Source: an uncultured virus (IMG/VR IMGVR_UViG_3300035181_002093) (taxonomy: Duplodnaviria > Heunggongvirae > Uroviricota > Caudoviricetes). Taken from it: DNA of 64,000 bases. Numbering within the stretch: the first letter of the stretch is position 1; every line of letters begins with the position of its first letter. Of the stretch, positions 1 to 35,494 are shown piece by piece. The notes beneath the pieces were generated by a model. It saw only the letters and a program-made list of their open reading frames with translations, did not search any database and was not told the origin of the DNA. The stretch spans positions 62,001 through 126,000 of the IMG/VR virus record IMGVR_UViG_3300035181_002093; one strand, written 5' to 3'. A program made the translations under genes and the position numbers.

Positions 1-2
1 CG

Positions 3-221
3 CTCGTGCGTGAGGGCATCAGCCGCCTGCCCTCACGAGAGCAGACAGTGCTCAACCTCTTCTATGGTGTCAAAGACGACCCGCGGAACCTGGTCCAGAT
101 CGCTTCCATCATGGGCATGTGCCCCGAGCGCGTCCGTCAGATCAAGCTCAGCGGGATGCAGCTCCTGCACAACGAGCTGAAGCAGCGTGTCGGCCTGTCG
201 ACTGAAGACGCGTACCTCTAG
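3..221 (+). CDS. Sigma-70-family RNA polymerase sigma factor, C-terminal region 4 (5'-truncated by window edge)
   Basis: LPSREQTVLNLFYG...NLVQIASIMGMCPERVRQIK matches the sigma region 4 HTH pattern (LxxRE..Vl.LryG...TL.EIg..lgvtrERVRQI); frame is open from the window start. Confidence 0.85.
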   Translation, partial: LVREGISRLPSREQTVLNLFYGVKDDPRNLVQIASIMGMCPERVRQIKLSGMQLLHNELKQRVGLSTEDAYL

Positions 222-3576: not shown

Positions 3577-3965
3577 CGCTTTCCTCCTGGGAAGTCAAGG
3601 GACTCCCCTTCCATGAGTTGACGTTCGGGTGTCGGAAACTTGCCTGGGTTGGTCGCGGCTGCTTTGGCGGAGGCCCGCAGGATTGCATCCATGTCGACAG
3701 GCGCCTGGCCTCCATCAACAACAGCGAGTGCGGGCGGTGCCGCCGCCGACTCTTGTCGCGCGTACTCGTCGAGGGTGGTTACACCGCTCGAGGTGATCAC
3801 CGGCGATGACGACGGCACATCATCGCGCGTCACCTCGACCGACACGACCGCCTTGTTCTTGGAGAACTTGATGTCGTCCTCCGAGGCTGAAATGCCTTGT
3901 TGGGCCAAGTCCTGTTTGATCAGGCGCGTGATGTCGGACGCCTCGTACGTGACTACAATCTTCAT
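3573..3965 (-). CDS. Hypothetical protein
   Basis: 130 aa; 4-bp overlaps with both neighbours. Confidence 0.7.
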   Translation of the reverse strand: MKIVVTYEASDITRLIKQDLAQQGISASEDDIKFSKNKAVVSVEVTRDDVPSSSPVITSSGVTTLDEYARQESAAAPPALAVVDGGQAPVDMDAILRASAKAAATNPGKFPTPERQLMEGESLDFPGGKR

Positions 3966-5990: not shown

Positions 5991-7781
5991 ATGGCCACTG
6001 ATGGAATGTTCGACCCGGGTATCTCCGACCTGTCGACGCAAAACACGTCGTCGCACGGAAGTCCGCTCTTCGATTTCCTCACGGCGTTCGCGCCACGGAA
6101 GCTCAAGGACCTCTTCCGACTGTGCGAGTACCTCTACTTCAACAGCGCGCAGATCTACGCCGCGCTCCAGAAGTTCTGCACGTACCCCGTCACCGACATC
6201 ATCTACGAGACGCAGAACGAGGCGCTCAAGAACTACTACGAGGACCTCCACGACAAGACGCTGAAGACGAAGCGCGTCTTGATCCGCGCGGCCGTCGACA
6301 AGTTCGTTTACGGCAACGCGTTCTTCTCGATGTACGCGCCGTTCGTGCGCTTCCTGAAGTGTCCGCGCTGCCAGTCGCTGACGAACATCCACCAGGTCAC
6401 CTACAAGTTCAACCTGAAGAAGCTCGCCTTCAACTACGCATGCAAAGGCTGCAACGTGAAGGTGGACATCGGTGAGAAGGACGTCATCGACCGCAAGATC
6501 ACACGCAAGGACCGCATCTCGGTGATCCGTTGGGACCCGAAGTTGATGGACATCGACTACAACCCCATCACCGGGCACAGCGAGTACTACTACACGATCC
6601 CCAAGGAGATTAAGGAACGCTGCGCCAAGGGGAACAAGCACCTCATCGACACGATGCCGATGGAGTTTTTGAAGACGATTCGCTCGGACAAGATCTTCAA
6701 GTTCGCGGAAGGTCAAGTCTTCCACATGCGCATGGACGCGCCCGCGGGCATCGAGGCTCAATGGGGCTTCCCGCCGCTCGCATCGACGATCAAGCTGTTC
6801 TTCTACGCGGCGGTGCTGCGCAAGGCGAACGAAGCGATCGCGCTCGACTACATCGTCCCGCTGCGCATCATCTCGCCGAAGCAGTCGTCGGCGAACGCCG
6901 ATCCGATGACCACCATCTCGTTGGCCAAGTGGTCCGACGAGATGAAGACCAGCGTCAAGAAGTGGCGGCGAGATCCCCTCCACATCATGTGGTCACCGAT
7001 CCCCGCGGAGGTCACGCACCTTGGTGGCCAAGCCCGTGCGCTCATGACGCTCGGCGAGGTCCAGGCTGCCGAAGACAACATCATCGCTGCAATGGGCCTG
7101 CCCAAGGAGTTCATCTACGGCGGCTTCTCTGCGATGGGCTCGGGCATCCAGCTTCGCGTGCTCGAGAACCAGCTCGTTCACCAAACGGGTGACCTCAACG
7201 ACCTCCTGCAGTGGGTCACAGACAAGTCGGCCAAGCAGCTGGGGCGTGGCACGGTGACGTGTTCGCTCGCACCCTTCCGCTTCATCGATGACGTTCAGCA
7301 GAAGGCGCTGCTCCTGCAGCTCAACGGCGCCGACCCTTCGACGGGCCCGTGGATCTCCAAGCGGACCATGGGCGAGGCGTTCGACATCGACCCGTCCGAC
7401 GAGCGCAAGTGGCGCATGCAGGAAGCAATCGACGACGCGCGAACTGCACAGGAGCTGCAGGTCGAGATGCAGAAGCGTCAGAACAATCTGGGCTCACAGG
7501 CACGAGCCCAAGCGCAGATGGGTCAGCAGGGTCTCTCCTACGACCAGCAGGCGGTGATCGCGCAGGCAGATCAGGTGATCCAGCAGCTGATGGGCCTGGA
7601 CCCCGGGAGCCGGCAATCGCAGATGCACGCGCTGCAGACCGAGGACATGGTGATGTACGCGGTCGTCAAGGAACGCATGCATGACCAGACCACTCAGCAG
7701 AACCAACAGGCGATCGCGGCAGCCCGTCAAGGCGGCGATCCTTCCGGCGGTGGCGCACCACCCGCAGCGCCAGGTATGTAA
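5991..7781 (+). CDS. Probable portal protein with Zn-ribbon insertion
   Basis: First gene of the virion block, 596 aa; portal-like D.FVYGNAF, WGFPPL, I.AAMGLPKEFIYGG; CPRC/CKGC insert; Q-rich tail. Confidence 0.75.
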   Translation: MATDGMFDPGISDLSTQNTSSHGSPLFDFLTAFAPRKLKDLFRLCEYLYFNSAQIYAALQKFCTYPVTDIIYETQNEALKNYYEDLHDKTLKTKRVLIRAAVDKFVYGNAFFSMYAPFVRFLKCPRCQSLTNIHQVTYKFNLKKLAFNYACKGCNVKVDIGEKDVIDRKITRKDRISVIRWDPKLMDIDYNPITGHSEYYYTIPKEIKERCAKGNKHLIDTMPMEFLKTIRSDKIFKFAEGQVFHMRMDAPAGIEAQWGFPPLASTIKLFFYAAVLRKANEAIALDYIVPLRIISPKQSSANADPMTTISLAKWSDEMKTSVKKWRRDPLHIMWSPIPAEVTHLGGQARALMTLGEVQAAEDNIIAAMGLPKEFIYGGFSAMGSGIQLRVLENQLVHQTGDLNDLLQWVTDKSAKQLGRGTVTCSLAPFRFIDDVQQKALLLQLNGADPSTGPWISKRTMGEAFDIDPSDERKWRMQEAIDDARTAQELQVEMQKRQNNLGSQARAQAQMGQQGLSYDQQAVIAQADQVIQQLMGLDPGSRQSQMHALQTEDMVMYAVVKERMHDQTTQQNQQAIAAARQGGDPSGGGAPPAAPGM

Positions 7782-7789
7782 GATAACCC

Positions 7790-8173
7790 ATGCCGCAAGA
7801 CTCAGAAGACTTCGCCGACGTCATCGAAAAGGCCCAGAAGGTCAGCAACGACCTGGGCAGCTTGTTCGGTGCGCAGAACGGACCGGGGCGTGTTGCGTTC
7901 GAACAGCGCGGCAACCGCGGCGGCCCCGAGCTGGACTACGAAGCCCACTCCGAGGTCTTCGCGCTGCCCGCGGATCGCGACAGCTACGAAGACGTCATGA
8001 ACCAGGTGCTGCGTGGCGAAGCCATCATGCGCTACGAGGACCGGACCTTCTCGAAAGAGGGCGACTTCCTGGTGGCCTTGGTCTACCTGACGCCCCGTGC
8101 ACGTCCAGCTCCCGTGAACAACCAAGACGCAGGCGACGCCGAACCTGCTGAACGACCGCGACGGCTGCCCTAA
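7790..8173 (+). CDS. Hypothetical protein
   Basis: 127-aa ORF between portal and RNAP. Confidence 0.7.
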   Translation: MPQDSEDFADVIEKAQKVSNDLGSLFGAQNGPGRVAFEQRGNRGGPELDYEAHSEVFALPADRDSYEDVMNQVLRGEAIMRYEDRTFSKEGDFLVALVYLTPRARPAPVNNQDAGDAEPAERPRRLP

Positions 8174-8190
8174 CGGAGCCTTGTACCAAA

Positions 8191-11100
8191 ATGCTGCCAA
8201 ATCTACGACCGATACTCGAGGACGCGGCAACGCGGCGCGAGATGATCCGCAAGAAGGTCGTCGAAGGCCTCGAGCAGTCGTTCCCGCTCAAGGCCGGCAA
8301 GCACACGGTCGAGGTATCGAACGTGCGCGTCGACCCGCAGGACTACTCGTCCCGGGACCAGAAGCGTGCCGTGCTCGAAGGCAAGACCTTGTCGGAACGT
8401 GTGCGCGGTGACGTCACCGTCAAGGACGCGGCGGGCGGCGTAGTCAACCACGCCAAGGACTTCACGCTGCTGCAACTGCCGTACTTCACGCCACGGCACA
8501 CCTTCATCCTCGATGGCACGGAGTACTCCGTCTCGAACCAGCTGAGGACGAAGCCAGGCGCGTACGTACGTCGCCGTGGCAACGACGAGCTGGAGGCGAC
8601 GTTCAACCTGTCGAAGGGCGCGAACTTCCGCGTGTCGATGGAGCCCGAGAAGGGTCTCCTCTACATGCAGCCATCGCACACGACCACGAAGATCCCGCTG
8701 CATCCAATCCTCCGCGCGCTTGGGATGCCTCACCAGGACATCGCGGCGAGCTGGGGCCCTGAGATCGCGGGCATGAATCGCGACGCTTGGAAGAACCCGG
8801 ACAAGCACGTCAGCAAGCTCTACGAGACGCTCGTGCATCCGGCCAAGCAGACCGCGACCACGACGGAAGAGAAATCCCGCGTGCTGCGCGAGTACTTCGA
8901 CCAGACCTCGATGGACCCCGAGGTCACGACCCACACGCTCGGCTACCCGTACGACAAGGCGTCGGCGTCTGCAATCCTGGCGGCGTCCAAGAAGCTGCTC
9001 GACGTACACAAGGCAGCCGCCGACGTTGACGATCGGGACTCGCTGGCGTTCAAGACGTTCCACTCGGCGGACGACTTCATCAAGGAACGCGTGCAGCTCG
9101 AGGCTCGGGCGATGCGTGCGAAGCTTGGCTGGAAGCTCGACGCGAGCCACGGGGACCTGAAGAAGGCGTTGCCGGCAGGCCCGTTCACGCGATCGATGCA
9201 CGGGCTCCTGGTGGGGTCATCGCTCTCGGCAGTCCCGATGCAGATCAACCCGATGGAGTTGCTCGACGAAGCGTCACGCGTCACGATGCTCGGCGAGGGT
9301 GCGATCGCGTCCGAGCGCGCCATCCCGCTCGAGGCTCGCGACGTCCATCCGACGCACTTCGGAATCCTTGACCCTGCAAGGACCCCAGAGTGCTACGACG
9401 CCATGACCGAGGTCTTCACGTCACGCGGGTGGAAGCGGTGGCCGGATGTCACTGCGAACGACTGGCTCGCATGTCGTGTCGATGAACGTCTCGAATTCCA
9501 CCGCGCGACCAACCTCACGGCACAGCCGTATGAGGGCCTCATGTATGGCCTAGAGACGGGCAAAATCAATTACCTGGTAACGCCCAACCACCGCGTCTTG
9601 TGTAAGCCGCTCGAAACGCGCGGACTCCAACACTGGCGCATCAACCGAGCGGACGAGGTACACGGCAAACCGCGTACATTCGACACGGGACACCTGCCGT
9701 ACGTTGGGGAGAGTGTTGATACGTTTCAGCTCCCCCGGGCCGCCGGCGGCAACGCGGTAAAGAATGTTGGCCCGATTGCCATGACGGACTGGGCGTCCTT
9801 TATGGGATGGTATCTGTCCGAAGGGTGTTTCAACTTCACCGAAAAAACATTCACGTATCACGTCCTGATCTCACAGGACGTGAAAAAGAATCCACAAAAC
9901 TGCGAGATTATCGAAGCACTGCTCCGGCGTATGCCGTTTGCATGGTCACAACGCGGGGGTGACACGTATGTCATCGGCGTTAAGCAGCTAGCGGCATATG
10001 TGCAGCAGTTCGGGCACGCGGGGGATAAATACATCCCGGAATACTTTTTTCAGGCGTCGTACGAAGTACGAGAGAATCTATTCGAAGCTCTCCTGTTGGG
10101 AGACGGTCGAAGGTGTAAGGTTCCGTTGCCAGGTGCAACACACGACCGAAATGTACTCTGTACTACCAGCGCACGCTTGGCCGTCGATTTTGACCGCCTC
10201 GCGATTTCCCTGGGACGCCCAACACGCACCGCGCGCTACGTCGACAAGCGTGAAGAGCGGTATCTGGACACGTACGAAGTACGTCCGTTGAAACAACGTT
10301 TTCGACAATCGCGGACACGTGAGGAGCAGCGGGGCTACTACACCGAGCACTATCGCGGCAACGTGTACTGCGCTGAAGTCCCCGGGGGACTGTTGTACGT
10401 GCGGCGGAACGGCAGCGTCCCGATTTGGTCGGGCAACTCGTTCAAGGTCGGCGTCGACCTTCGTGCCACGATCGGTGCGCGGCGCGACGACAAGGGCAAC
10501 CTCTACGCGCCGGTCTACGACGTCGCTGCGAAGAAGTCGACGTACCTCAAGGCCGGTGACATGGCGAAGTCGATCATCGCGTTCCCTGGTGAACACCTGG
10601 GACCGGGGAAGATCGTCGATGCGATGGCGCATGGCGTCGTATCGCGCGTGTCGTCGGATCGCGTGACCCACCAACTGGAGCATGTCGCAGACCAGTATGG
10701 GCCCACGTCGAACCTCCTGCCGCTGCTCTACGGCATCCAGGCGAACCGCGTGCTCATGGCGAGCAAGCACCAGGGCCAAGCACTGCCGTTGACGCATCGT
10801 GAGGCGCCGCTCGTCCAGGTTGCATCGTGGAAGCCAGGGACGTCGGTCGAACGGGAGATGGTCAAGCTGATCGTCCCGACCGCACGACAGGCCGGCACGA
10901 TCACGAAGATCGATGACGACTGGATCCACATCGAGCCGGACGCGAAGACGGCCGCGCTCACGACGAAGCTCCACTACGACACCAACCTTCCGCTCGCCGC
11001 CAAGACGATGCTGCACAACACGCTGACCGTGAAGGTCGGCGACCGTGTCGAGAAGGACCAGCTCCTCGCTGACTCGAACTTCACCAAGGACGGCACGCTC

Positions 11101-13599
11101 GCGTTGGGCACGAACCTGCGGGTGGCATACATGCCGTACCGCGGCCTCAACACCAACGACGGCATCGTCGTCTCGCAGGGCGCAGCGGACAAGCTGACGA
11201 GCGAACACATGTACCAGCACGCGCTTTCGCGTGAAGGGGACGTGCAGCTCGGACGTGAGAAGCACCGGACCTACTTCGGCAGCCGCTACACCAAGGACCA
11301 GTACGACAAGCTCGACGAAGACGGCGTTGTCAAGCCGGGGGTCACTCTTCACAAGGGCGACCTGATCGCTGCGGGCATCCGCGAGAACAAGGTGACGGGT
11401 GACGCACTCCTGCTGGGTAAGCTGTCCAAGTCGCTGGTCAAGCCCTACGAAGAAGTGGTCGAGACTTGGACGCACGATCGACCCGGCATTGTCGTAGACG
11501 TGGCGAAGACCGCCCGACAGGCAGCTGCGTCGATCCGCACCCAGGAGACACTGCAGATCGGCGACAAGCTGTGCAACCGCTTTGGCAACAAAGGCGTGAT
11601 CGCGAAGATCATCCCTGACCACCAGATGATCCAGGATGCGCAGGGGCGCCCTGTCGATCTTCTCTTCACGTCGGCGGGTATCGTCTCGCGCATCAACCCA
11701 GCGCAGGTCATCGAGACGGTGCTTGGAAAGGTTGCCGAAAAGACGGGTAAGCCGATCGTCATCCCGCAATACATGCCAGGCCGTGACAACGTCGCCTTCG
11801 CAAAGAAGTTGCTCGAGGAACACGGTCTCTCGGACAAAGAGACGGTCCTTGACCCTATCACGGGCAAGAAGGTTCCCGACGTGTTGGTCGGCAAGAGCTA
11901 CATCCTGAAGCTCTTCAAGACCACAGATTCCAACTGGGCAGCGCACGGCGCCGAGAAGTACGACTACAACCAACAACCGGCGCGTGGTGGTGACGAAGGT
12001 GCCAAGGGCATCGGCAAGATGGAATTCGATGGACTCGTCGCGCACAACGCACGCAACGTGCTGCGTGAAGCGGCGTCCATCAAGAGCCAGCGCAACGACG
12101 AGTTCTGGCGCGCGATCCAACTCGGGCTGCCGACGCCTTCGCCCAAGACGCCATTCGCCTACGACAAGCTGCAGAGCATGCTCACGGGCGCCGGCGTCAA
12201 GGTGACGAAGACCGGCTCACGCTTGGCGCTTGGTCCGCTCACCGACGCGGACGTCAAGTCGATGTCCTCAGGAGCGCTCAAGGACCCGAGCAAGTTGATC
12301 CGCGCGAAGGACCTACGCCCCGAGACCGATGGCCTCTTCGACCCAGGGATCACCGGCGGCATGTCGGGCACGAAGTGGTCGCACGTCGACCTGCACGAGC
12401 CGATCGTCAACCCCGTGTTTGAGGAACCCGTGCGACGCCTTCTCGGACTGACACAGAAGGAGTTCACGGAGCGTGTGGGCAAGGGCGGGAGCTGGTTCAA
12501 GACGGCGCTCGGCGAGATCAACATCGATGACAAGTTGAAGGATCTGCTGGCGCAATCGAAGAAGGCGCGTGGACCCGCACTCGACGGCGTGGTGAAGCAG
12601 ATCAAGTACCTCGAGGCGTTAAAGGACCGCGACCTCAAGCCTGCGGACGCCTACGTCATCTCGAAGGTGCCGGTGACGCCGCCGGTGATTCGTCCGATCC
12701 TGCCGCTCAAGGACGGGCGTCTGCAGGTCAGCGACGCGAACCTGCTCTACAAGGACGCGTTCCTCGCGAACGATCAGCTCAAGTCATCCGCCAAGTCGTT
12801 GCCGTCATCCGAGTTGCCCGGTCCACGGCAACACCTGTACGACGCGGTGAGCGCGCTCTACGGCGTCGGCGACCCTGTGAGCCCTGGCGCCGAGAAGCGC
12901 GGTGCGAAGGGGTACCTCGCGGCCATCACGGGCACGCGACCAGGCAGCGGCTTCTTCCAGTCGCGCCTCATGAAGCGGCAGCAAGACGTGAGCGGTCGCG
13001 CGACCATCGCACCTGACCCAACATTGTCGATGGACGAGATCGGCGTGCCCGAAGGGATGCTCTGGGGCATGTACAGTAAGTTCGTGATCGGACGCTTGGT
13101 CCGACGCGGCTATACAGCGACCGATGCGCAGAAGATGGTGGATGACCGCACGCCCGTCGCGCGGGAAGAGCTGGTCAACGAATCACGTGAACGTCCGGTC
13201 ATGGTGAATCGTGCACCGTCACTTCACCGCTTCAACATCGTGGGTGCATACCCCAAGATTGTTGAGGGCAAGACGCTCAAGCTCAATCCGTTCGCCGAGA
13301 AGGGCATGAATGCGGACTACGACGGCGACGCCCTTCAAATCCATGCCCCGGTGACACCGGGCGGTGTCGAGGACGTCAAGAAGATGACGCTCTCGCACAT
13401 GATCTTCGCCGACAAGCGCCCAGGCGTTCTGAACATCGCGCCCGACATGGAGGCTGTGCTGGGCTTGCACCGTGCGACGCAGGCGGCCAGCGGCAAGAAG
13501 ACGCGGCACTACGACTCCCAGGAGGAGGCGATGGCGGCCTACCACCGGGGCGACATCGCGCTCAACGATCCCATCGAAATCAGGGCCAAGCGCCTATAA
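8191..13599 (+). CDS. rpoB: DNA-directed RNA polymerase: beta subunit fused to N-terminal half of beta', intein-containing
   Basis: Beta motifs RDVHPTHFG, TPE, ANRVLMA...QALPL, GDKLCNRFGNKGVI, SRIN, GIGKME; then in frame beta' motifs DGLFD, DVSGRATI, NRAPSLHR and catalytic NADYDGD. Confidence 0.96.
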   Translation: MLPNLRPILEDAATRREMIRKKVVEGLEQSFPLKAGKHTVEVSNVRVDPQDYSSRDQKRAVLEGKTLSERVRGDVTVKDAAGGVVNHAKDFTLLQLPYFTPRHTFILDGTEYSVSNQLRTKPGAYVRRRGNDELEATFNLSKGANFRVSMEPEKGLLYMQPSHTTTKIPLHPILRALGMPHQDIAASWGPEIAGMNRDAWKNPDKHVSKLYETLVHPAKQTATTTEEKSRVLREYFDQTSMDPEVTTHTLGYPYDKASASAILAASKKLLDVHKAAADVDDRDSLAFKTFHSADDFIKERVQLEARAMRAKLGWKLDASHGDLKKALPAGPFTRSMHGLLVGSSLSAVPMQINPMELLDEASRVTMLGEGAIASERAIPLEARDVHPTHFGILDPARTPECYDAMTEVFTSRGWKRWPDVTANDWLACRVDERLEFHRATNLTAQPYEGLMYGLETGKINYLVTPNHRVLCKPLETRGLQHWRINRADEVHGKPRTFDTGHLPYVGESVDTFQLPRAAGGNAVKNVGPIAMTDWASFMGWYLSEGCFNFTEKTFTYHVLISQDVKKNPQNCEIIEALLRRMPFAWSQRGGDTYVIGVKQLAAYVQQFGHAGDKYIPEYFFQASYEVRENLFEALLLGDGRRCKVPLPGATHDRNVLCTTSARLAVDFDRLAISLGRPTRTARYVDKREERYLDTYEVRPLKQRFRQSRTREEQRGYYTEHYRGNVYCAEVPGGLLYVRRNGSVPIWSGNSFKVGVDLRATIGARRDDKGNLYAPVYDVAAKKSTYLKAGDMAKSIIAFPGEHLGPGKIVDAMAHGVVSRVSSDRVTHQLEHVADQYGPTSNLLPLLYGIQANRVLMASKHQGQALPLTHREAPLVQVASWKPGTSVEREMVKLIVPTARQAGTITKIDDDWIHIEPDAKTAALTTKLHYDTNLPLAAKTMLHNTLTVKVGDRVEKDQLLADSNFTKDGTLALGTNLRVAYMPYRGLNTNDGIVVSQGAADKLTSEHMYQHALSREGDVQLGREKHRTYFGSRYTKDQYDKLDEDGVVKPGVTLHKGDLIAAGIRENKVTGDALLLGKLSKSLVKPYEEVVETWTHDRPGIVVDVAKTARQAAASIRTQETLQIGDKLCNRFGNKGVIAKIIPDHQMIQDAQGRPVDLLFTSAGIVSRINPAQVIETVLGKVAEKTGKPIVIPQYMPGRDNVAFAKKLLEEHGLSDKETVLDPITGKKVPDVLVGKSYILKLFKTTDSNWAAHGAEKYDYNQQPARGGDEGAKGIGKMEFDGLVAHNARNVLREAASIKSQRNDEFWRAIQLGLPTPSPKTPFAYDKLQSMLTGAGVKVTKTGSRLALGPLTDADVKSMSSGALKDPSKLIRAKDLRPETDGLFDPGITGGMSGTKWSHVDLHEPIVNPVFEEPVRRLLGLTQKEFTERVGKGGSWFKTALGEINIDDKLKDLLAQSKKARGPALDGVVKQIKYLEALKDRDLKPADAYVISKVPVTPPVIRPILPLKDGRLQVSDANLLYKDAFLANDQLKSSAKSLPSSELPGPRQHLYDAVSALYGVGDPVSPGAEKRGAKGYLAAITGTRPGSGFFQSRLMKRQQDVSGRATIAPDPTLSMDEIGVPEGMLWGMYSKFVIGRLVRRGYTATDAQKMVDDRTPVAREELVNESRERPVMVNRAPSLHRFNIVGAYPKIVEGKTLKLNPFAEKGMNADYDGDALQIHAPVTPGGVEDVKKMTLSHMIFADKRPGVLNIAPDMEAVLGLHRATQAASGKKTRHYDSQEEAMAAYHRGDIALNDPIEIRAKRL
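9391..10437 (+). mobile_element. Intein (349 aa) with LAGLIDADG endonuclease in RNAP beta
   Basis: TPE|CYDAMTEVFT ... VTPNHR ... FMGWYLSEG ... LLLGDG ... VYCAEV ... WSGN|S; lower GC than exteins. Confidence 0.93.
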
Positions 13600-13600
13600 T
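13595..13600 (+). promoter_or_regulatory. Putative late promoter -10 (CGCCTATAAT)
   Basis: Overlaps the RNAP stop codon, 5 nt before the GTG of the LAGLIDADG gene. Confidence 0.55.
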
Positions 13601-13605
13601 AAAGC

Positions 13606-14154
13606 GTGCCCTTCGAGTCCCCGGCCGCCGCAGCCCACTACCTTGCCGCGATGATCGACGGTGAAGGAACGGTTGCGGTGCTCACCTCTCGATCGCGCAA
13701 TCGCGTGGTCAAGGTTTGCAACACCGACTGGGACATCATCACGGCTACCGTCGAAAGCTGCGAGACTCTCGGCATTCGATGTTGCGTTGTCGAACGGCCA
13801 CGTACAGGCCGTCCAAAACACTGGAAACAAGTTTGGGACGTCGCCATCCAAGATCGCGAAGCCCTCATGCGACTATTGACGCAAGTTCCGCTGCGGTCTC
13901 TTCGAAAACAGCAGCGACTCAAAACTTTGATTCAATCCTACCGAACGTCCAAACGGCCTCCGTTCGAGGATCTCCAACGAATGTACGTCGACGAAAAAAT
14001 GTCGTACACGGACATCATGCGAACGACAGGCGCTCGATCAACGGCAACGGTAGCGTACTGGCCCCGGACGTCAGGGATCGTCGCGCGCACCCGTTCAGTT
14101 GCGGGCCACTTGACGTGGCAGACGAAGCGAGGAGTTCTCCATGCCGTTCCGTAG
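13606..14154 (+). CDS. Free-standing LAGLIDADG homing endonuclease with C-terminal HTH
   Basis: YLAAMIDGEG motif, V.NTD, and LQRMYVDEKMSYTDIMR HTH-like tail. Confidence 0.85.
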   Translation: MPFESPAAAAHYLAAMIDGEGTVAVLTSRSRNRVVKVCNTDWDIITATVESCETLGIRCCVVERPRTGRPKHWKQVWDVAIQDREALMRLLTQVPLRSLRKQQRLKTLIQSYRTSKRPPFEDLQRMYVDEKMSYTDIMRTTGARSTATVAYWPRTSGIVARTRSVAGHLTWQTKRGVLHAVP

Positions 14155-14602
14155 CGAGGCTCAACGTCGCTACCTGTTCTCGCAACACCCGGATGTCGCC
14201 CGCGAGTTTGCGAACGCGACGCCCAAGGGCAAGAAGCTGCCCGAGCATGTCAAGAAGTCGCACGTGCGCGGCATCGCAGACGCGCTCGAGCAGTTCGGTT
14301 TCAAGCAAGCAGCAGAGGAGCTGCGCTTGAAGATCCCAAGCCGCACGTTCCACGGCTACGATGCAGCTCACAAGACGGAAGCGAACCGCGGCTCGAAGAA
14401 GGCGGATGTGGACGGCACCGCAGACAACCTCGCCGACGTGCTCAAGCAGATCGACGTGAACGTGTCGCCTGATGTACAGCTTGCAGCCCGCGATCCACTC
14501 GACCGTACTACTGCGTGGGGATCTCCCTCGAACCTTGCGGGCGGCGACTCGGCGAGCCGGCTCAGTGACATGGGACAGAACACTGCTTTTGGAGGCGTCT
14601 GA
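14141..14602 (+). CDS. Putative virion protein with MPFRSEAQRR N-terminus and shared motif
   Basis: SHVRGIADALEQFGFKQAA; GGAG upstream of the ATG. Confidence 0.7.
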   Translation: MPFRSEAQRRYLFSQHPDVAREFANATPKGKKLPEHVKKSHVRGIADALEQFGFKQAAEELRLKIPSRTFHGYDAAHKTEANRGSKKADVDGTADNLADVLKQIDVNVSPDVQLAARDPLDRTTAWGSPSNLAGGDSASRLSDMGQNTAFGGV

Positions 14603-15327
14603 TGTCACTCATGCCCCGTGAAGAGACGAGAACCTCTGAAAACTCGATCGGCCACATCATCGATCGAGCCACAGGTAAAGCCCCCAAACCTACAGCGGGT
14701 TCCCTCATCGACTCTTTGTTGAGCGGGGGAAAAATGGCGATGCCGATGCAAGGGCAACTGACGCCAGACCAGTTAGCAGTGAACGAAGAACTGAAGGGGC
14801 TCGGGGGACGCCCCAACATGCACGGAGGGATGGACATGCCTGAGTCTTTCCACGGAGACCTCATGTCGACATTCGAACGCCACAACATGCACCGTGCCCC
14901 CCTCGGGAATCCCAAGATGGCCGGGGTTTATCGTGTGGGTGTTGCCGACGCACTCGTGCGTTTCAAGATCGCAGCCCCTGCTCCCCTGCCTGCCCCTGCT
15001 GCGGGTCCTAGCTTCGCGTCCAAGGTCAAGGACTTCGGAGCCGGTCAGTGGGGCGCCGCGAAAGACTTCGCCGCGAATGTACGCGGTGGCATGGGTGGAA
15101 AGGCGAACCCGAACTTCATCACAGGCGCCGTACCCGAGCACAGCATGGACATGGCGCGTGCATCACAACGCGGTGCTGCAGTCGGCAACCTCAAGACCCT
15201 TGCACCGACGCTGCTCGCGGGCGGAGGTCTCTACATGTTGCACCAGCACAACCAGGCCGAGAAAGAGGAAGAGGCCCGGCAGCACGCGATGATGGGCGGC
15301 GGCATGTCGATGGGTGGAGGATACTGA
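14602..15327 (+). CDS. Putative internal virion protein with shared motif and C-terminal hydrophobic helix
   Basis: VYRVGVADALVRFKIAA; LAPTLLAGGGLYML. Confidence 0.65.
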   Translation: MSLMPREETRTSENSIGHIIDRATGKAPKPTAGSLIDSLLSGGKMAMPMQGQLTPDQLAVNEELKGLGGRPNMHGGMDMPESFHGDLMSTFERHNMHRAPLGNPKMAGVYRVGVADALVRFKIAAPAPLPAPAAGPSFASKVKDFGAGQWGAAKDFAANVRGGMGGKANPNFITGAVPEHSMDMARASQRGAAVGNLKTLAPTLLAGGGLYMLHQHNQAEKEEEARQHAMMGGGMSMGGGY

Positions 15328-15328
15328 C

Positions 15329-16108
15329 GTGCCGATGAACCCTCTACTAGCGCGCAGCCTCATGGGCGCGGCGATCGGCACAGCCGGCGGAGCCTTGACC
15401 GCTGAAAAAGGTCATCGTGAAGAAGGTGCGCTGCAAGGCGCAGCGATCGGAGGCGCCGGCGGTGCCCTTTACCACCTTGGTAAGCAGGCACCCACCGCAG
15501 GACCGCGTCCTCCGGGGCCAAGTGCTCCTGGTCCAAGCGCAGGTCCGCGTCCAGCAGGTCCAAGTGCTCCTGGTCCAAGCGCAGGTCCGCGTCCAGCAGG
15601 TCCGTCCTGGGAAGACAGAATGCGACAACAGTGGCGGGCGCAAGATGAGGCCCGTGCGTCCGCATCACGGCAGGCACGACAGAGCGCCAAAGAAGAGGCG
15701 TACAAACACACGCAACAAAGCCAGTCCGCACAAGACGGTTTCAAATACCGTCAACAAGCGGAGGACAAGCACTGGGGTGCGCAGAACGAAGATGTTTTCA
15801 ACAACTGGCGTAAGGCGCGACAGGGCGCTGGTGCGGGTCCAAGTGCTGTTATAGGACAATCAGCTCCACGCGGAGCGCCAAGTGGCGGACTTCCGTCGTG
15901 GATGAGCGGAGCGCAAACACAGGCGGAGGCGAAGAGTCGCTTCAGAGAACAAGCAATGAATATGCATCCAGACCGTGGCGGAAACACGGCCGACATGCAG
16001 TCATTGAATGCACAGTGGGCCGCTGCACGGAAACACCCTGACTTCTCGAGCATGAAAGAAGCGTGGTGGATGGGCAAAGCGGCTGCGTTACAACATTTCG
16101 GTCTCTAA
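15329..16108 (+). CDS. Glycine-zipper protein with C-terminal J-domain (HPD)
   Basis: GAAIGTAGG/GAAIGGAGG zippers; AKSRFREQAMNMHPDRGG..DMQSLNAQW; ends AWWMGKAAALQHFGL. Confidence 0.75.
   Translation: MPMNPLLARSLMGAAIGTAGGALTAEKGHREEGALQGAAIGGAGGALYHLGKQAPTAGPRPPGPSAPGPSAGPRPAGPSAPGPSAGPRPAGPSWEDRMRQQWRAQDEARASASRQARQSAKEEAYKHTQQSQSAQDGFKYRQQAEDKHWGAQNEDVFNNWRKARQGAGAGPSAVIGQSAPRGAPSGGLPSWMSGAQTQAEAKSRFREQAMNMHPDRGGNTADMQSLNAQWAAARKHPDFSSMKEAWWMGKAAALQHFGL
15517..15604. repeat. Coding 42-bp tandem duplication (PSAPGPSAGPRPAG x2)
   Basis: CCAAGTGCTCCTGGTCCAAGCGCAGGTCCGCGTCCAGCAGGT occurs twice in tandem. Confidence 0.9.
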
Positions 16109-16113
16109 CCAAC

Positions 16114-17895
16114 ATGGCGACAACGCTCGGACAGCACCTCGTCGACTCCATCCTCCCATCGAAGTGGCGAGGACAGGGGGCGCTCACCAAGGGGAACCTG
16201 AACAAGGTCCTCCTCGGTGTCGCAAAAGAGGACCCGAGCAAGTACCCCGACGTCGTGACCAAGCTCAAGCGTCTCGGTGACGAGGTCGCAACGCTCGACG
16301 GCATCTCCGTCGGCCTCGACGACATCGCGCCCCGTGTTGCTGAACGCGACGCTGCCTTGAAGCCGCACGTCGAAGCCTTTCGAAAGGCGACGACCAACGC
16401 GGACAAGGTCAAGACGCTCGTGGGCGGACAGAATGCGATGCTCATGCTGGCACGCAACCACCCAGGCACGATGGGCGAGATGGTTCGCGCCGGCGGTCGC
16501 GGCAATGCTGCACAACTCATGCGCACCGTGGGCGCACCCGTCTTCGCCGAAGACTCCAAGGGCAAGGTCATTCCGTGGCTCGTCGACAAGAGCTTCTCCG
16601 AAGGGCTCAAGCCTGCGGATGCGTGGATCATGGGCGGTCAGGCGCGTGTCAACGCGGTGGTCTCGAACATCTCGGTTGTCGAGCCCGGTGACCTTGCGAA
16701 GATCCTCGTCAACAACATGGGCGACCAGCTCGTGACGACGGTGGACTGCGGCACCAAGAACGGCATCGCGATGTTGCCGACCGACGCACACCTCATCGAC
16801 CGCTACCAGGCGGGCACGAACAAGCTGATCACGCCGCAGTACGCGTCTCACCTTGCCAAAGAAGGCAAGGAGGTCATCGTCCGTTCTCCGATGACCTGCG
16901 AAGCTGCGCACGGCGTCTGTCAGCGCTGCCAAGGCCTGTCGTCTTCGGGTGGCATGCATTCGATCGGAACGAACGTTGGCGTTCGCGCGGCTCAAGCGCT
17001 CGCCGAGCCGCTCACGCAGTTCGCCCTCAACGCGAAGCACGGCGGGCGCGTCGTCGGTGTTGACGACGAGAAGCGGCTCGAGGGCATCAAAGGCGTGCGA
17101 GCCTTGCTCGAGATTCCGACATCGTTCGCACACAAGGCGGTACTTGCTGACCGCGACGGTTCCATCACGAAGATCGACAAGGCTCCGCAGGGCGGTCACT
17201 ACGTCTTCGTCGGCGACGGTAGCCACTACGTGCCTCCCGCACACAAGGTCGTCGTGGGCATCGGGCAATCGATGTATGCAGGGGACTTGCTCTCCGATGG
17301 CGTACCCAAGCCTGACGAGATCGTTCAACACAAAGGCCTCGGTGAAGGTCGACGCTACCTCGTCGACGCGCTCTCCGATGTCTACAAGCGCGCAGGCTCC
17401 GAGGTCGACAAGCGCCACCTCGAGACGCTCGCCAAGTCCGTGCTCAACCACGTCCAGATCATTGATCCCGGTCCCGACGACGCATTCATCAAGGGTGACG
17501 TCGTCGACTACAATCGGTTCCATGCGTCCCTGGCCGCATCCAAGAAACGCCTCCCGACGACAGACGCGATCGGCGAGACGCTCGCGGACGGCATCCTCCA
17601 CCACACGGCGGGTACTGTCGTGACGCAGCCAATCGCAGACCAGCTCGTACGCCACGGCGTGACGTCGGTGATGACGTCCAGCCAGGGGCCGCGTGCACTG
17701 CCGTTCATGCGCCCGGCGTCGCGCACACCTCTTCTCAATCCGGATTGGATGGCACGCCTCGCACACCGCTACCTCAAGGAGTCATTGCTAACAGGCATCC
17801 ACCGCGGCGATGTCTCCAACCTACACGGGGCGTCCCCTGTTCCAGCGTACGCTGCAGGCACAGAGTTTGGCCTTGGTGAAGAGGGGCAATACTGA
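16114..17895 (+). CDS. rpoC: RNA polymerase beta' C-terminal half (bridge helix, Zn site, trigger loop)
   Basis: TTLG, GISVGLDD, AGGRGN..Q, SFSEGL, VDCGT, RSPMTC...VCQRCQG, GVRAAQALAEPLTQ...HGG, DKRHLE. Confidence 0.93.
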   Translation: MATTLGQHLVDSILPSKWRGQGALTKGNLNKVLLGVAKEDPSKYPDVVTKLKRLGDEVATLDGISVGLDDIAPRVAERDAALKPHVEAFRKATTNADKVKTLVGGQNAMLMLARNHPGTMGEMVRAGGRGNAAQLMRTVGAPVFAEDSKGKVIPWLVDKSFSEGLKPADAWIMGGQARVNAVVSNISVVEPGDLAKILVNNMGDQLVTTVDCGTKNGIAMLPTDAHLIDRYQAGTNKLITPQYASHLAKEGKEVIVRSPMTCEAAHGVCQRCQGLSSSGGMHSIGTNVGVRAAQALAEPLTQFALNAKHGGRVVGVDDEKRLEGIKGVRALLEIPTSFAHKAVLADRDGSITKIDKAPQGGHYVFVGDGSHYVPPAHKVVVGIGQSMYAGDLLSDGVPKPDEIVQHKGLGEGRRYLVDALSDVYKRAGSEVDKRHLETLAKSVLNHVQIIDPGPDDAFIKGDVVDYNRFHASLAASKKRLPTTDAIGETLADGILHHTAGTVVTQPIADQLVRHGVTSVMTSSQGPRALPFMRPASRTPLLNPDWMARLAHRYLKESLLTGIHRGDVSNLHGASPVPAYAAGTEFGLGEEGQY

Positions 17896-18341
17896 TGATC
17901 GCTCGAGCACATGCAAAGGGTATCGAAGATGCCCTTGCGCGCTTCCAAGTCAAAGACGCGGGCATCATGGAAGGCATCAAGCAGACCTTCATCGGACAGC
18001 CTGGGCGTGCTTTCGTGGAAGGACCGCGTACGTTCTCTCCGGGTGGAATGCTTTCCACCAAGAACGTATGGTGGCCCAGCGTCAAGGGCCAGCCGTTGAA
18101 CTGGATTGGACGTGCTGGCACGATCGCAGCACCGCTCATGGCACTCTCTGCCATGCGGTCAAACCCGCAAGAGGGCCACCTATCAAACGCGCTCGGTGCG
18201 CTTGGTGGAATCGCTGGGAGCGCATATGGTTTCCCGGCGCTTGGCATGCTTGGCGGACCTCTTCTCGCACAAGCGGGCGCACGAGCTGGACGTGGCCTCG
18301 GACATCTACTCGGCAGTAAACCGAAGGACCTCTATCAATGA
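17895..18341 (+). CDS. Glycine-zipper virion protein with shared N-terminal motif
   Basis: AHAKGIEDALARFQVKDA; GALGGIAGS...GLG. Confidence 0.7.
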   Translation: MIARAHAKGIEDALARFQVKDAGIMEGIKQTFIGQPGRAFVEGPRTFSPGGMLSTKNVWWPSVKGQPLNWIGRAGTIAAPLMALSAMRSNPQEGHLSNALGALGGIAGSAYGFPALGMLGGPLLAQAGARAGRGLGHLLGSKPKDLYQ

Positions 18342-18574
18342 TCAACGACGCCTATAATAAAGGCCGTACCGATGCACTCACCCGCTTCAAGCTCGCTCAA
18401 GGCATGGGCATGGGTGCTGGTGGTATGAATGTCGGTGGTGGCGTCGGCGGTGGCACGTCGGGCAGTCCTGGCGCAGCGGGAATGGCAGCACCACTGCCTC
18501 CCGCGATGGCCGCTCCAACATCCGCGGCGCCGCCCATGGCAGCGGGGGCTCAAAAGGCTCGCGCGCTCGGTTAG
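18338..18574 (+). CDS. Small G/A/P-rich protein with shared N-terminal motif
   Basis: AYNKGRTDALTRFKLA. Confidence 0.7.
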   Translation: MINDAYNKGRTDALTRFKLAQGMGMGAGGMNVGGGVGGGTSGSPGAAGMAAPLPPAMAAPTSAAPPMAAGAQKARALG

Positions 18575-18646: not shown

Positions 18647-19966
18647 ATGTTCAAGCATGCGTACGTCCGTGGCATCCAGACCGCGTTGGTCAACAGCGGC
18701 GCAGCCGCGTTCCCCGACGAGACCACCGCGGCGAAGGTCGCGGACTACATCGCTGACCGTGTCGACATCGACCCTCTGAAGGGTGTGTCGCGCGAGGCGA
18801 CCCACAAGATCGGGACGGACCTGGTCGCAGCCTCCGACTGGATCAAGCAGCAGCCCGGCTTCAAGGCGGCGAGCTTCAACAAGCTCGCGACGTGGGAAGA
18901 CGTCGCGCAGCTCGCGGATCGCAACGCGACCCAGCTGATGACGAAGGCCGCCGAGGGCTCGACCATCGAGGGTGGCGACAAGGGGAACACCCAAGCCGAG
19001 GCGCCCGCGGGCGAGACCAAGATGGACGCCTCGCAGCGTCCTCCCGGCTATGCCGAGGACAGCCGCGGCAAGACCGAGATCGACACCCGGCCGGGCACGG
19101 TCGGCAAGGAAGAGGAGCAGCCGAACAAGCCCAAGGAGACCGACTCCAAGGACAACTCGGTGCAGGAGCACTCGCGCACCGCGTCGCTCGCTGACCTCTT
19201 CCGCAAGTCGGCCGAGGGCTCGACGATCATGGGTGGCGACAAGGGCAACACCGCCATGTCGTCGGCCGAGGCCAAGATGGACGCGGCACAACGTCCCGCA
19301 GGCTACGCCGTCCTGCCCACGCAGGGTGCACTCGGCGCGATGATGAACCTCGTCGGCGGCCCCGCGGTCGTCGGCAAGGAGACCGCGCAGCCGAACAAGC
19401 CCGGCGAGTCGCCGAGCGGTTCGAACTCGGTGACCCAGCAGTCCGCCAAGGCGGCTGCCGAGGACCCGTACATCGCGCTCTTCAAGAAGGTCGCTGCCGA
19501 GGTGCACGAGTACCTCCCGGGCGGTCTCCACGAGAACGCCAAGATCGCCGCGGTCCGCGCCTGCATGGGCATGACGACCGAGGAGAAGGCGTACTACCTC
19601 CGCGGCCTGCAGAAGGAGGCGGCGGATGCGTCGACGGGTTCTTCCAGCCTGCCGCCGGGCTCGCGCGGTGATCGCTACCGTGAGCACAACCCGGACGCGA
19701 CGCACTCGCGGCCCGGCGCCTACGATGGCCGCTCTGGCAACCAGGGCACCAAGCAGGCCGACGACCTCCCGCCCTTCATGAAGAAGGACGAGAAGGACGA
19801 GAAGAAGGACGACGACAAGGAGAAGGACAAGGGCGGCATGCCCGACTTCATCCGCGAGAAGATCGAGGGCAAGAAGCACGAGGAAGGCGAGTCGAAGAAG
19901 GAAGAGCACAAGGAGGCCTCGCTTCGCGACTTCTTCCGTCGCATCGACGCGGCACAGCGCGCGTGA
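18647..19966 (+). CDS. Putative scaffold/internal head protein with internal duplication and many K-x-A sites
   Basis: AYVRGIQTAL; two copies of K[AS]AEGSTI.GGDKGNT...KMDA.QRP.GYA; strongly biased codons. Confidence 0.7.
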   Translation: MFKHAYVRGIQTALVNSGAAAFPDETTAAKVADYIADRVDIDPLKGVSREATHKIGTDLVAASDWIKQQPGFKAASFNKLATWEDVAQLADRNATQLMTKAAEGSTIEGGDKGNTQAEAPAGETKMDASQRPPGYAEDSRGKTEIDTRPGTVGKEEEQPNKPKETDSKDNSVQEHSRTASLADLFRKSAEGSTIMGGDKGNTAMSSAEAKMDAAQRPAGYAVLPTQGALGAMMNLVGGPAVVGKETAQPNKPGESPSGSNSVTQQSAKAAAEDPYIALFKKVAAEVHEYLPGGLHENAKIAAVRACMGMTTEEKAYYLRGLQKEAADASTGSSSLPPGSRGDRYREHNPDATHSRPGAYDGRSGNQGTKQADDLPPFMKKDEKDEKKDDDKEKDKGGMPDFIREKIEGKKHEEGESKKEEHKEASLRDFFRRIDAAQRA

Positions 19967-26604: not shown

Positions 26605-27174
26605 ATGACACCCTTCACACAAGCCCTCGAGACGTCGGTCTTCCTCGCCGAGAAGATCGCGTCCGCGCGTCCTGCAAGCGCCACGCTGCGTGAGAAGCTC
26701 GCGATGGCGGACTTCGCCGCGTTCGGGTTGTTCAAGCGTGCAGCGTTCGACCCCGCGGCGCTCTCTGCGTTGCAGAAGGGGTTGGGATGGGGTGTCGGTC
26801 TCGGCGTGCCTGCGCTTGGCGTCGGACACATGATGCTCGGCGATGCAAAGCGCCACAGCGCCGACGTTCTACGTGACGCACGCAACCAGGCGCTTCTGAC
26901 AGCCGCCGGTGTCGGAAGCATGCAGGCCCTCGGTGACATCTTTCGTGGAGGCCCCAAGCCGTCGCAATCGAGCGGCCTGGGGTCGATGGTAGACACGGGA
27001 ATGTCGCCAGCCACGACGACGGCGCAGAAGCTCGCGGCTGCGATCATGGTCGATGACGTGCTTGAAGACGGCTGCTATCTGCTCGACGACCCAAGCCTCA
27101 AGCACGCGATGCTCGTCCAGCTCGTTCGCCATCGCAGCGATGCGACCAGCCTACTGCGGAGCCTTCTGCCGTGA
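26605..27174 (+). CDS. Glycine-rich virion protein
   Basis: EKIA, EKLA, KRAA, QKLA; GLGWGVGLGV. Confidence 0.7.
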   Translation: MTPFTQALETSVFLAEKIASARPASATLREKLAMADFAAFGLFKRAAFDPAALSALQKGLGWGVGLGVPALGVGHMMLGDAKRHSADVLRDARNQALLTAAGVGSMQALGDIFRGGPKPSQSSGLGSMVDTGMSPATTTAQKLAAAIMVDDVLEDGCYLLDDPSLKHAMLVQLVRHRSDATSLLRSLLP

Positions 27175-34927: not shown

Positions 34928-35107
34928 ATGTCGAACAACCACCTGAAGACCGCGCACGAGTACGGCATCCAGAAGGCTCTCGAAGCTGTCGGCTACAAGA
35001 GCGCGGAGGAAGTCCGTCGCGATGCCGAGGCGCTCGGCCTGATCGAGGCACCCAAGACGGCCGCCGCGAACCCGCTCGCAGACCTGTTCCGCGCGATCCA
35101 GAAGTAG
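34928..35107 (+). CDS. Small protein with shared motif (59 aa, not in ORF track)
   Basis: MSNNHLKTAHEYGIQKALEAVGYKSAEE...PKTAAANPL. Confidence 0.7.
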   Translation: MSNNHLKTAHEYGIQKALEAVGYKSAEEVRRDAEALGLIEAPKTAAANPLADLFRAIQK

Positions 35108-35116
35108 TTCCCCGCC

Positions 35117-35494
35117 ATGTCGCTGCTGCGCCAAAAGTCGGCTGAGGGCGGGCGCGCAGCGCTCGCGGCCTTCGGCTTGCCTGCGCCGCAGCAGCCAGGT
35201 CTCAAGTCTGTTGGGATCAAGACGCCACACGCGTCGGATCTTCCACACCTGCCACGGCCCGGATCGACCAACGCACCATCGGTTGGAGACTCGATGGGCG
35301 TTGACGCTGCGAAGATCGCGTTCAACGTCGGCATGGGTGCGTCGACATCGAGCGACGGTGCAGGTGCTCAGGCGGGTGAGCCGACGGACACCGGACGTCG
35401 TCAACGCAGCGTCATCGATCGCGCACTCCAGCGCAACGACGACGACTACGCAACCAGCAGCATGCCGTTGCCAGGAGACGTCGTTTCGCCATGA
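35117..35494 (+). CDS. Small protein with shared N-terminal motif
   Basis: KSAEGGRAALAAFGL; KIAFN. Confidence 0.7.
   Translation: MSLLRQKSAEGGRAALAAFGLPAPQQPGLKSVGIKTPHASDLPHLPRPGSTNAPSVGDSMGVDAAKIAFNVGMGASTSSDGAGAQAGEPTDTGRRQRSVIDRALQRNDDDYATSSMPLPGDVVSP

Follow-up and report, generated by a model that had tools for sequence, protein, structure and literature searches.

To our knowledge, all cellular RNA polymerases (RNAPs) need an alpha-like platform to unite beta and beta-prime, and the only studied exceptions are the alpha-less enzymes of phages phiKZ and AR9, which have also lost a recognisable sigma and are hard to align. Fusions of rpoB and rpoC of the Helicobacter and Wolbachia types, which we take to be those behind the profiles PRK09603 and PRK14844, work with alpha and omega. 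According to passages of the review by Sokolova (2020, PMC7598289), the phiKZ and AR9 enzymes function without alpha, and the split of phiKZ-type beta-prime follows the double-psi barrel (DPBB) and coincides with the cyanobacterial split. Sections of Weinheimer and Aylward (2020, PMC7481178) describe the RNAP of uncultured tailed phages, named mReC, as a clade apart from cells. In this work, we analysed a stretch of 64,000 nucleotides (nt) from an uncultured phage (Caudoviricetes), hereafter the window, which corresponds to positions 62,001 to 126,000 of the IMG/VR record IMGVR_UViG_3300035181_002093. Its positions 8191-17895 encode the only multisubunit RNAP of this phage as two polypeptides: beta fused to the N-terminal part of beta-prime (chain 1, beta::beta-prime-N) and the remainder of beta-prime (chain 2, beta-prime-C). 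The source record is a single contig of 137,503 bp with 62% GC and an estimated completeness of 74%, while related phage genomes measure 179-188 kb. This architecture is new within known bacterial-type RNAPs; it is widespread and essentially undescribed in print.

A preliminary description of this DNA, made from its letters, had read beta and beta-prime motifs on one open reading frame (ORF) of 1802 amino acids (aa), with the rest of beta-prime starting 2.5 kb later at MATTLG past four ORFs, in a streamlined enzyme of bacterial type; each of these claims is borne out. Indeed, the chain 1 gene (Table 1) is a stop-free frame whose 1802-aa precursor is reduced to 1453 aa once an intein is removed. 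Pfam places on it the beta domains Rpb2_3 (residues 351-400) and Rpb2_6 (945-1264, E 2e-45) and, on the same chain, the beta-prime domains Rpb1_1 (1460-1536) and Rpb1_2 (1666-1732, E 1.1e-20), in agreement with PDB matches to bacterial beta over residues 764-1367 and to beta-prime over 1413-1801. The lysine motif that marks the beta DPBB (GDK...GNKG) is found in GDKLCNRFGNKG, whose residues G1124, D1125, K1126 and G1132-G1135 are invariant in the three aligned sequences (3/3), and the beta-prime motif NADYDGD occupies residues 1707-1713 (nt 13309-13329). As both motifs lie on one ORF, both double-psi barrels share one chain. In a junction alignment with six bacterial beta-prime N-termini, the beta-prime N-terminal motif comes almost directly after the C-end of beta. 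The four-cysteine zinc ribbon of ~30 residues at the beta-prime N-terminus, present in 6/6 bacterial rows, is deleted in 6/6 phage rows (three split and three fully fused). Chain 1 ends in ...IRAKRL and its gene in the double stop TAA TAA.

Chain 2 lies within the ORF 16063..17895. Its start, the ATG at 16114 (MATTLG), was set by alignment with gp216 of Salmonella phage Arash and protein 0264 of Vibrio phage D69, and stands 2514 nt past the stop of chain 1. It matches Rpb1_5 (E 1.4e-17) and, in the PDB, the C-terminal half of bacterial beta-prime (E 1.3e-36), in an alignment that spans the bridge helix and the trigger loop and keeps the beta-prime C-terminal region. The cysteine cluster C229/C279/C286/C289 of the second zinc site is invariant in the aligned relatives, and no large trigger-loop (SI3-like) insert appears in the alignment to solved beta-prime. 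Along the 1147 positions of the rpoC profile TIGR02386, the beta-prime part of chain 1 covers 160-536 and chain 2 covers 549-1067; no beta-prime segment is therefore missing. The beta part amounts to ~995 aa and the beta-prime part to ~1050 aa, giving ~2046 aa for both chains, and the NCBIfam equivalog cut-offs are missed for rpoB (286 bits vs 896) and rpoC (190 and 172 bits vs 963.5).

The two-chain layout is genuine and not an assembly error. We surveyed 51 loci, several of them near-duplicates, comprising 49 from IMG/VR together with Arash and D69. Beta-N, beta-C and beta-prime-N share one stop-free frame in 49 of them, the remaining two (L019 and L045) being cut by contig ends, and beta-prime-C is a separate gene in 51/51, after a gap of 500-5724 nt. 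In the two cultured phages, the chains measure 1525 and 606 aa (Arash gp206 and gp216) and 1527 and 609 aa (D69 0261 and 0264). Three further IMG/VR contigs are 100% identical to the window across the region. Misassembly, which the preliminary description had named as a possible refutation, was also checked with contigs from a second assembler (four runs): they cover 7500-15547 and 15574-18500 with zero differences and zero indels and break only at a short repeat within the ORF 15314-16108, a comparison that rests on contigs rather than raw reads and on runs that may be the source samples. One could still imagine a single gene broken by assembly or sequencing error, or two halves that a split intein, for instance, would reunite at the protein level, as both RNAP ORFs and the endonuclease ORF between them are in one reading frame. 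Such explanations can be virtually dismissed given the 2.5 kb with four ORFs that follow the double stop, the same break in complete genomes of cultured phages and the identity of the second assembly. Joining of the halves by a split intein or by read-through was likewise rejected in view of the double stop, the 2.5-kb gap and the lack of intein-like ends (...IRAKRL; MATTLG), and relatives start chain 2 at the same place. The layout is common to a large group of phages, hardly studied so far, of which two kinds have been cultured. A search of the phage collection with 8191-17895 at the DNA level returned no match.

Among cultured phages, Arash and the Vibrio phages D69, D181 and D148 share this layout; their genes run from the portal through a small gene and chain 1 to the gap and chain 2, and two sigma genes are present as well. 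Chain 1 is 37% identical to its counterparts in Arash and D69, and chain 2 is 32-33% identical; both phages lack the intein, and their gap holds nine genes in Arash (OQ632216) and two small ORFs in D69. The Arash paper names the two proteins beta and beta-prime, and neither 'fus' nor 'split' occurs in its text (PMC10585845). The mReC phages, some of ~180 kb, resemble this phage in carrying alignable bacterial-like beta and beta-prime beside structural genes, but in the 59 phage rows considered, out of 104 in Supplementary Dataset 2, the two are always separate proteins of at least 900 aa each (e.g. 1371 + 1010); in the main text, 'fused' or 'fusion' is used for crAssphage only and 'split' never (PMC7481178). 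The available passages of three reviews list phiKZ/AR9-type enzymes (PMC7598289, PMC13282480), together with YonO-type ones in PMC7824862, none with this layout, and no description of it was found in our literature search, which brought up no further paper on D69, D181, D148 or 'Arashvirus' either. The moraphage study (PMC12619734) has no bearing here, those phages being without RNAP.

The comparison with cellular enzymes is instructive for both the fusion and the break. The best NCBIfam match of chain 1 is PRK09603; in both, the C-end of beta leads into the N-end of beta-prime, as the operon order would have it. However, against the full rpoBC fusion profiles (2839-2890 aa) chain 1 reaches only 340 bits for a cut-off of 5372, and the enzyme described here is far smaller, with a broken beta-prime. 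The break falls near the cyanobacterial one, as the preliminary description had proposed: when two solved beta-prime chains of cyanobacteria are aligned with it, chain 2 begins ~10-16 residues ahead of their residue 1, and chain 1 matches the cyanobacterial gamma profile over positions 175-553 of 619, all scores being far below cut-offs. In contrast, gamma is free and not fused in cyanobacteria and plastids, and the rpoC2 profile extends over 1230-1338 positions with a large insert, compared with 593 aa here.

The likeness to phiKZ/AR9-type enzymes is partial. They too are phage-encoded, lack alpha and omega, have a beta-prime broken after the DPBB and exist in a virion form, whereas their beta is in two or three pieces, two enzyme sets are present per genome and a sigma-70 homologue is missing, according to passages of PMC7598289 and PMC7824862. 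For this comparison and for the subunit and sigma searches below, five genomes were used: the source record, Arash, D69 and two complete relatives with terminal repeats. Here beta is whole, each genome has a single Rpb2_6 locus (5/5), and Sigma70_r2 is over cut-off in all (5/5). Similarity to phiKZ/AR9-type proteins is also weaker (E 1e-11 to 1e-20 vs 1e-36 to bacteria). The beta-prime pieces of Ralstonia phage RP13 and Escherichia phage IME392 break within ~2-40 residues of the break in the window. The preliminary description had stated that phiKZ RNAPs are split differently; since phiKZ-type beta-prime breaks at about the same point (RP13, IME392 and passages of PMC7598289), this contrast is wrong for beta-prime, while it is correct as regards beta, the number of enzyme sets and the absent sigma. 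The 'beta/beta-prime' annotations of RP13 and IME392 were examined as candidate fusions and turned out to denote small pieces of the phiKZ type.

Single-chain phage proteins bear on how the split arose. In these more distant relatives from uncultured phages (e.g. P0006, P0007, P0014 and P0016, on contigs of 170-198 kb), on which no paper was found, beta-prime is unbroken and the whole core is one polypeptide. They are ~2000-2090 aa long (longer with inteins), occur on contigs of at most 198 kb and are 33-37% identical to the window proteins over beta plus beta-prime-N and 29-33% over beta-prime-C. They have lost the N-terminal zinc ribbon likewise, and the equivalent of the chain 1 end abuts that of the chain 2 start seamlessly. 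An exhaustive, profile-free search with chain 2 gave 5113 representatives at E<=1e-3 (1118 at E<=1e-30), and the 243 matching proteins retrieved were sorted into 123 split-type, 32 fully fused (~2000-2900 aa), 14 intermediate (bacterial beta-prime or probable fragments) and 74 partial ones. Three trees were then built by IQ-TREE quick search (LG+G4, bacterial beta-prime as outgroup), and in all of them the phage family is one clade with the split rows nested among the fused rows. In the beta-prime-C tree (82 rows x 617 columns), built without any of the partial or intermediate proteins, with only one in two of the split representatives and without proteins that carry an intein in this region, 36/37 split rows form one nested clade, the exception outside it being a 671-aa probable fragment. 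All split rows (20/20) form one clade, with a Shimodaira-Hasegawa-like approximate likelihood ratio (SH-aLRT) of 100, in the beta-prime-N tree (61 x 449) as well as in a combined tree with both parts side by side (60 x 1055). When the fused rows were forced into one clade, the approximately unbiased (AU) test rejected their monophyly on the combined columns (log-likelihood difference 80.6, p-AU 0.0055). Because beta-prime is unsplit in the bacterial outgroup, parsimony favours fusion first and split second. The sequence comparisons thus argue with good confidence for the split being a secondary break of a one-chain enzyme.

Some points weigh against this polarity. The AU test does not reject fused monophyly on either half alone (p 0.266 for beta-prime-C and 0.181 for beta-prime-N), the searches were quick, the model simple and the outgroup limited to 10-14 bacterial sequences. 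A long branch leads to P0037, the most basal of the fused rows, and the fused group was defined by architecture, but the first tree had been seen before the tests. The opposite history, in which the split form is ancestral, perhaps inherited from a cyanobacterium, a phiKZ-like phage or another donor whose beta-prime was already split, and the ~2000-aa chains are re-fusions, would draw on these same single-half tests and on the break at about the same place in cyanobacteria and phiKZ-type phages. It nevertheless appears improbable in the face of three maximum-likelihood trees that nest the split clade in fused rows and the outcome of the combined AU test, and it costs one extra event, a re-fusion, of which the seamless fused junctions keep no leftover linker. 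The favoured order from one chain to two also bears on the independent capture of a bacterial rpoBC by a phage, put forward in the preliminary description. This claim is unsupported; the family is one deep clade outside the 10-14 sampled bacterial beta-prime sequences, and its likely immediate ancestor is a fully fused chain rather than a design with beta plus beta-prime-N.

Other variations were observed in this family. P0151 (1087 aa) starts inside the homology to the beta C-terminal tail and continues into a whole beta-prime, which makes it a fragment or else the sign of a third architecture, in which beta and beta-prime are separate. Many relatives have a longer beta-prime-C, with ~400-650 residues added at the C-end (e.g. 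P0098 and P0100-P0104, ~940-1100 aa; L031-L033); the extension of P0003 (1263 aa) contains GNAT acetyltransferase domains. Others carry, near residue 180 or 305, an insert of ~390 aa that is probably an intein.

The core enzyme appears to come without the small subunits of its bacterial counterparts. The preliminary description had seen no alpha or omega gene in the window, and this held when Pfam searches were extended to the five genomes: alpha (PF01000, PF01193) was found in 0/5 and omega (PF01192) gave a match over cut-off in 0/5, as far as Pfam profiles reach, since a divergent or analogous platform protein would escape them, while the same searches were positive in 14/14 control genomes. 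As for sigma, the source genome has two sigma-70-family genes, both with Arash orthologues. The 334-aa factor, whose gene runs into the start of the window, is RpoS/RpoH-like in NCBIfam and is the orthologue of Arash gp196; the gene of the 250-aa factor adjoins those of giant proteins with M23 peptidase and is the orthologue of Arash Gp10 (34% identity, E 8e-39). A complex model of beta-prime-N with the 250-aa sigma scored 0.74, against 0.00 for the best of three controls; this mark was reached by 116/157 solved complexes and 2/215 mismatched pairs, in a rough calibration that used our own alignments. The model runs share at least 60% of contacts, with a partner predicted local distance difference test (pLDDT) of at least 71, and the predicted interface sets the clamp helices against sigma region 2. 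As this pair is the textbook contact between sigma and core, the success of the model may only reflect likeness to solved holoenzymes. With this reservation, the model supports a binding of the 250-aa sigma to beta-prime-N.

Gene position and relatives suggest that the enzyme may travel in the virion. Immediately before the RNAP genes, 43 related loci carry a portal homologue (the search matched 44 loci, one being a flank of the source genome itself), and the RNAP genes therefore lie in the virion module. In purified Arash particles, Gp206 had the most spectra of any protein (3516), with 1210 for Gp216 and 467 for the sigma Gp10, according to the available parts of PMC10585845. No leader or capsid-targeting tag was seen on the RNAP chains; such a tag on chain 1 was rejected because its N-terminus aligns with the native beta N-terminus. 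An ordinary intracellular core that borrows host alpha and omega and stays out of the virion is an unlikely alternative, although several observations speak for it. The same particle list includes ribonucleotide reductase (RNR), primase and ligases, the authors name carry-over as possible (PMC10585845, in the same parts), and the beta-prime C-terminal region is retained in chain 2. This alternative has to account for the top rank of Gp206 in spectra (PMC10585845), for genes placed between portal and head genes in 43 related loci, for neighbouring small genes that share a leader-like motif and for phiKZ and AR9 enzymes that work alpha-less (passages of PMC7598289). Conversely, a packaged, alpha-less enzyme is weakened by the carry-over just mentioned, by the distance of Arash, from which the packaging evidence comes (31-37% identical to this phage), by the possible recruitment of host alpha or omega and by the 74% completeness of the record. 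Altogether, sequence and analogy with relatives put a virion-delivered, alpha-less, sigma-dependent polymerase at roughly even odds.

These elements can be assembled into a coherent proposal, to which we give a probability of about 0.7 as a whole: a two-chain core matured by intein excision, alpha-less and sigma-dependent, delivered with the virion and derived from a one-chain ancestor broken once. Chain 1 would first excise the 349-aa intein from a conserved beta segment, after which the two chains would form, with neither alpha nor omega, a catalytic core resembling that of bacteria, in which the covalent link from beta to beta-prime takes the place of the alpha assembly platform. The two sigma-70-family factors of the phage would choose promoters and, as relatives and gene position suggest, the enzyme may be packed into the virion with one sigma, injected, and start phage transcription. 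Its ancestor would be a single beta::beta-prime chain of ~2000 aa, broken once in the lineage of this phage, Arash and D69. The break would have occurred in a poorly conserved stretch after the beta-prime DPBB, a permissive region also broken in cyanobacteria and phiKZ-type phages, and the gap would then have become a slot for variable cargo genes. A bolder version, in which a self-sufficient minimal holoenzyme (one-chain in sister lineages) injected with one sigma would serve the whole infection without host RNAP and switch between its two sigmas, and which could be extended to phiKZ-type enzymes as descendants by further breaks that began with the shared one in beta-prime, seems rather doubtful to us.

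What sets this family apart is that it can be aligned residue by residue with bacterial enzymes and keeps sigma-70-type factors, yet appears to replace the alpha platform. The existence in nature of a one-chain form and of a form broken at a defined point offers an experimental handle, and cultured members (Arash and the Vibrio phages) make tests feasible. The questions so opened concern the minimum needed for sigma-dependent transcription, the role of alpha and omega, and the repeated break after the beta-prime barrel. Besides, the locus provides an example of an essential phage gene invaded by inteins, homing endonucleases and cargo genes.

Table 1. Coordinates of the RNAP locus and of flanking features in the window (aa, amino acids)
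Feature	Position	Strand	Basis or remark
Sigma-70-family gene, 3' end	1..221	+	334 aa, starts 783 nt before the window; Sigma70_r2 and r4
Probable portal gene, directly upstream of chain 1	5991..7781	+	synteny with portal-annotated Arash gp204
beta::beta-prime-N gene (chain 1)	8191..13599	+	Pfam and PDB matches; end-to-end alignment with Arash gp206 and D69 0261
Putative 349-aa intein with LAGLIDADG endonuclease domain	9391..10437 (residues 401-749)	+	clean insertion between TPE and S
beta active-site motif GDKLCNRFGNKG (beta DPBB)	11560..11595 (residues 1124-1135)	+	within Rpb2_6
beta-prime-N portion	12223..13599	+	from the beta C-end junction to the stop; clamp helices, NADYDGD
Free-standing LAGLIDADG homing endonuclease gene	13606..14154	+	right after TAA TAA; YLAAMIDGEGTV motif visible
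Small gene, 153 aa, leader-like motif at residues ~41-57	14141..14602	+	tblastn conservation
241-aa ORF	14602..15327	+	only the C-terminal half (from residue ~113) conserved in relatives
264-aa ORF: glycine zipper, PGPSA repeats, C-terminal J-domain-like HPD motif	15314..16108	+	weak Pfam matches
beta-prime-C gene (chain 2), 593 aa: bridge helix, Zn site, trigger loop	16114..17895	+	Rpb1_5; PDB; start set by alignment

Four ORFs occupy the gap between the two RNAP genes (13606-14154, 14141-14602, 14602-15327 and 15314-16108), the frames of the last two being less certain from their G+C content at third codon positions (GC3, 0.69 and 0.52). Compared with L012, a locus with 91% DNA identity, the window has three extra blocks (nt 9391-10437, 13602-14154 and 15304-16111), which correspond to the intein in beta, the homing endonuclease after the stop and the J-domain gene; all three are, to judge from this comparison, recent insertions. 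The endonuclease ORF reaches Pfam Hom_end at E 4.6e-4 (20.7 bits for a cut-off of 21.1) and has a GC3 of 0.63 vs 0.80 for the RNAP gene, and L021 has at the equivalent position a copy with 52% identity, which scores 26.7 bits against a cut-off of 22.5 for LAGLIDADG_3. The 153-aa gene matches no Pfam family and was found by tblastn in 22 related loci, excluding the three window-identical contigs; the alignment of its protein contains two rows in a wrong frame (L030 and L041). Together with the C-terminal half of the 241-aa ORF, it is conserved in a subclade. The 264-aa ORF, with weak Pfam matches to Gly-zipper (1.9e-4) and DnaJ (0.014), is confined to this phage, as tblastn retrieved it only in the three window-identical contigs. 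A homing endonuclease was considered as the cause of the split and rejected: a LAGLIDADG gene is present in only 2/39 gaps (the window and L021) and absent from L012, so that the endonuclease must have arrived late.

Across 38 non-redundant relatives, the gap carries a LigD primase-polymerase with phosphoesterase in 11, a ferritin-like protein in 2, an SNF2 helicase in 2, an RF-1-domain protein in 1 and a LAGLIDADG gene in 1; since its contents differ among relatives, the gap is a variable slot. The LigD-like protein combines primase-polymerase and 3'-phosphoesterase without ligase (L026, L027, L029, L037, L042, L043, L047, L048, L051, L053 and L056), and its L056 version is joined to a P-loop kinase-like domain. 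A peptide-chain-release-factor-like protein (PCRF and RF-1 domains) is encoded just upstream of beta-prime-C at L054:9409-10041. The SNF2-family helicases are located inside the gap at L019:4932-6566 and L054:7012-8490, and the window itself has one at 3962-5947 on the minus strand, adjoining the portal/RNAP block. A similar helicase has been linked to phiKZ-type RNAP genes in passages of PMC7824862, and the helicase beside the RNAP block may be a RapA-like partner.

Small proteins around the RNAP genes, otherwise unrelated, share at their N-termini a leader-like motif of the approximate form A-Y-x-x-G-x-x-x-A-L-x-R-F-K-[LV]-[AG]. It is N-terminal in the products of 17895-18341, 18338-18574, 18647-19966, 34928-35107 and 35491-36354 and internal in those of 14141-14602 and 14602-15327, while the 153-aa gap protein begins directly with it in L016 and L034.

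The insert in beta has the features expected of an intein: it is in frame, with a Cys at position 1, a C-terminal Asn, a +1 nucleophile and a predicted fold that combines Hint and LAGLIDADG domains. It is missing from the alignments of Arash, D69 and L012, and Cys1, TPNH, two LAGLIDADG-like motifs and the terminal Asn recur in seven homologous inserts. An AlphaFold (AF2) model with a pLDDT of 85 has as best fold matches endonuclease-bearing inteins, namely 7qsu (E 1.9e-14, TM score 0.59), PI-SceI and PI-PfuI. Two points tell against this assignment: the usual penultimate His is lacking (the insert ends in S-G-N), and no sequence profile is matched, searches of Pfam, NCBIfam and the PDB with its sequence having given nothing.

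Inserts in the RNAP genes of relatives are found at three conserved sites, including both catalytic motifs. At least seven loci hold inteins homologous to that of the window, either at the same site (L022, L024 and L044) or at the beta GDK motif (L014/L015, L026 and L047). Further inserts interrupt the beta GDK motif in L048, L050, L051 and L057 and the beta-prime NADYDGD site in L019 and L042; L019 may contain another homologous intein, the match being beside the GDK motif and not at the NADYDGD site. In the structural region of the window, a 945-aa ORF (27171-30008) contains another intein, with Hint and LAGLIDADG Pfam matches at or below cut-off, to which the RNAP intein has no sequence similarity that we could find. 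A third intein of the record lies outside the window, as an intein-splicing domain in an RNR with an ATP-cone (C1:38621-41803; L006:4722-7904).

Finally, two other genes of this phage deserve mention. A family A DNA polymerase with an N-terminal domain of the uracil-DNA-glycosylase superfamily is encoded elsewhere in the genome (C1:52667-55624; L007:68-3025), and an ORF on the minus strand of the window (60731-61519) carries collagen triple-helix repeats (Pfam E 8.7e-17).

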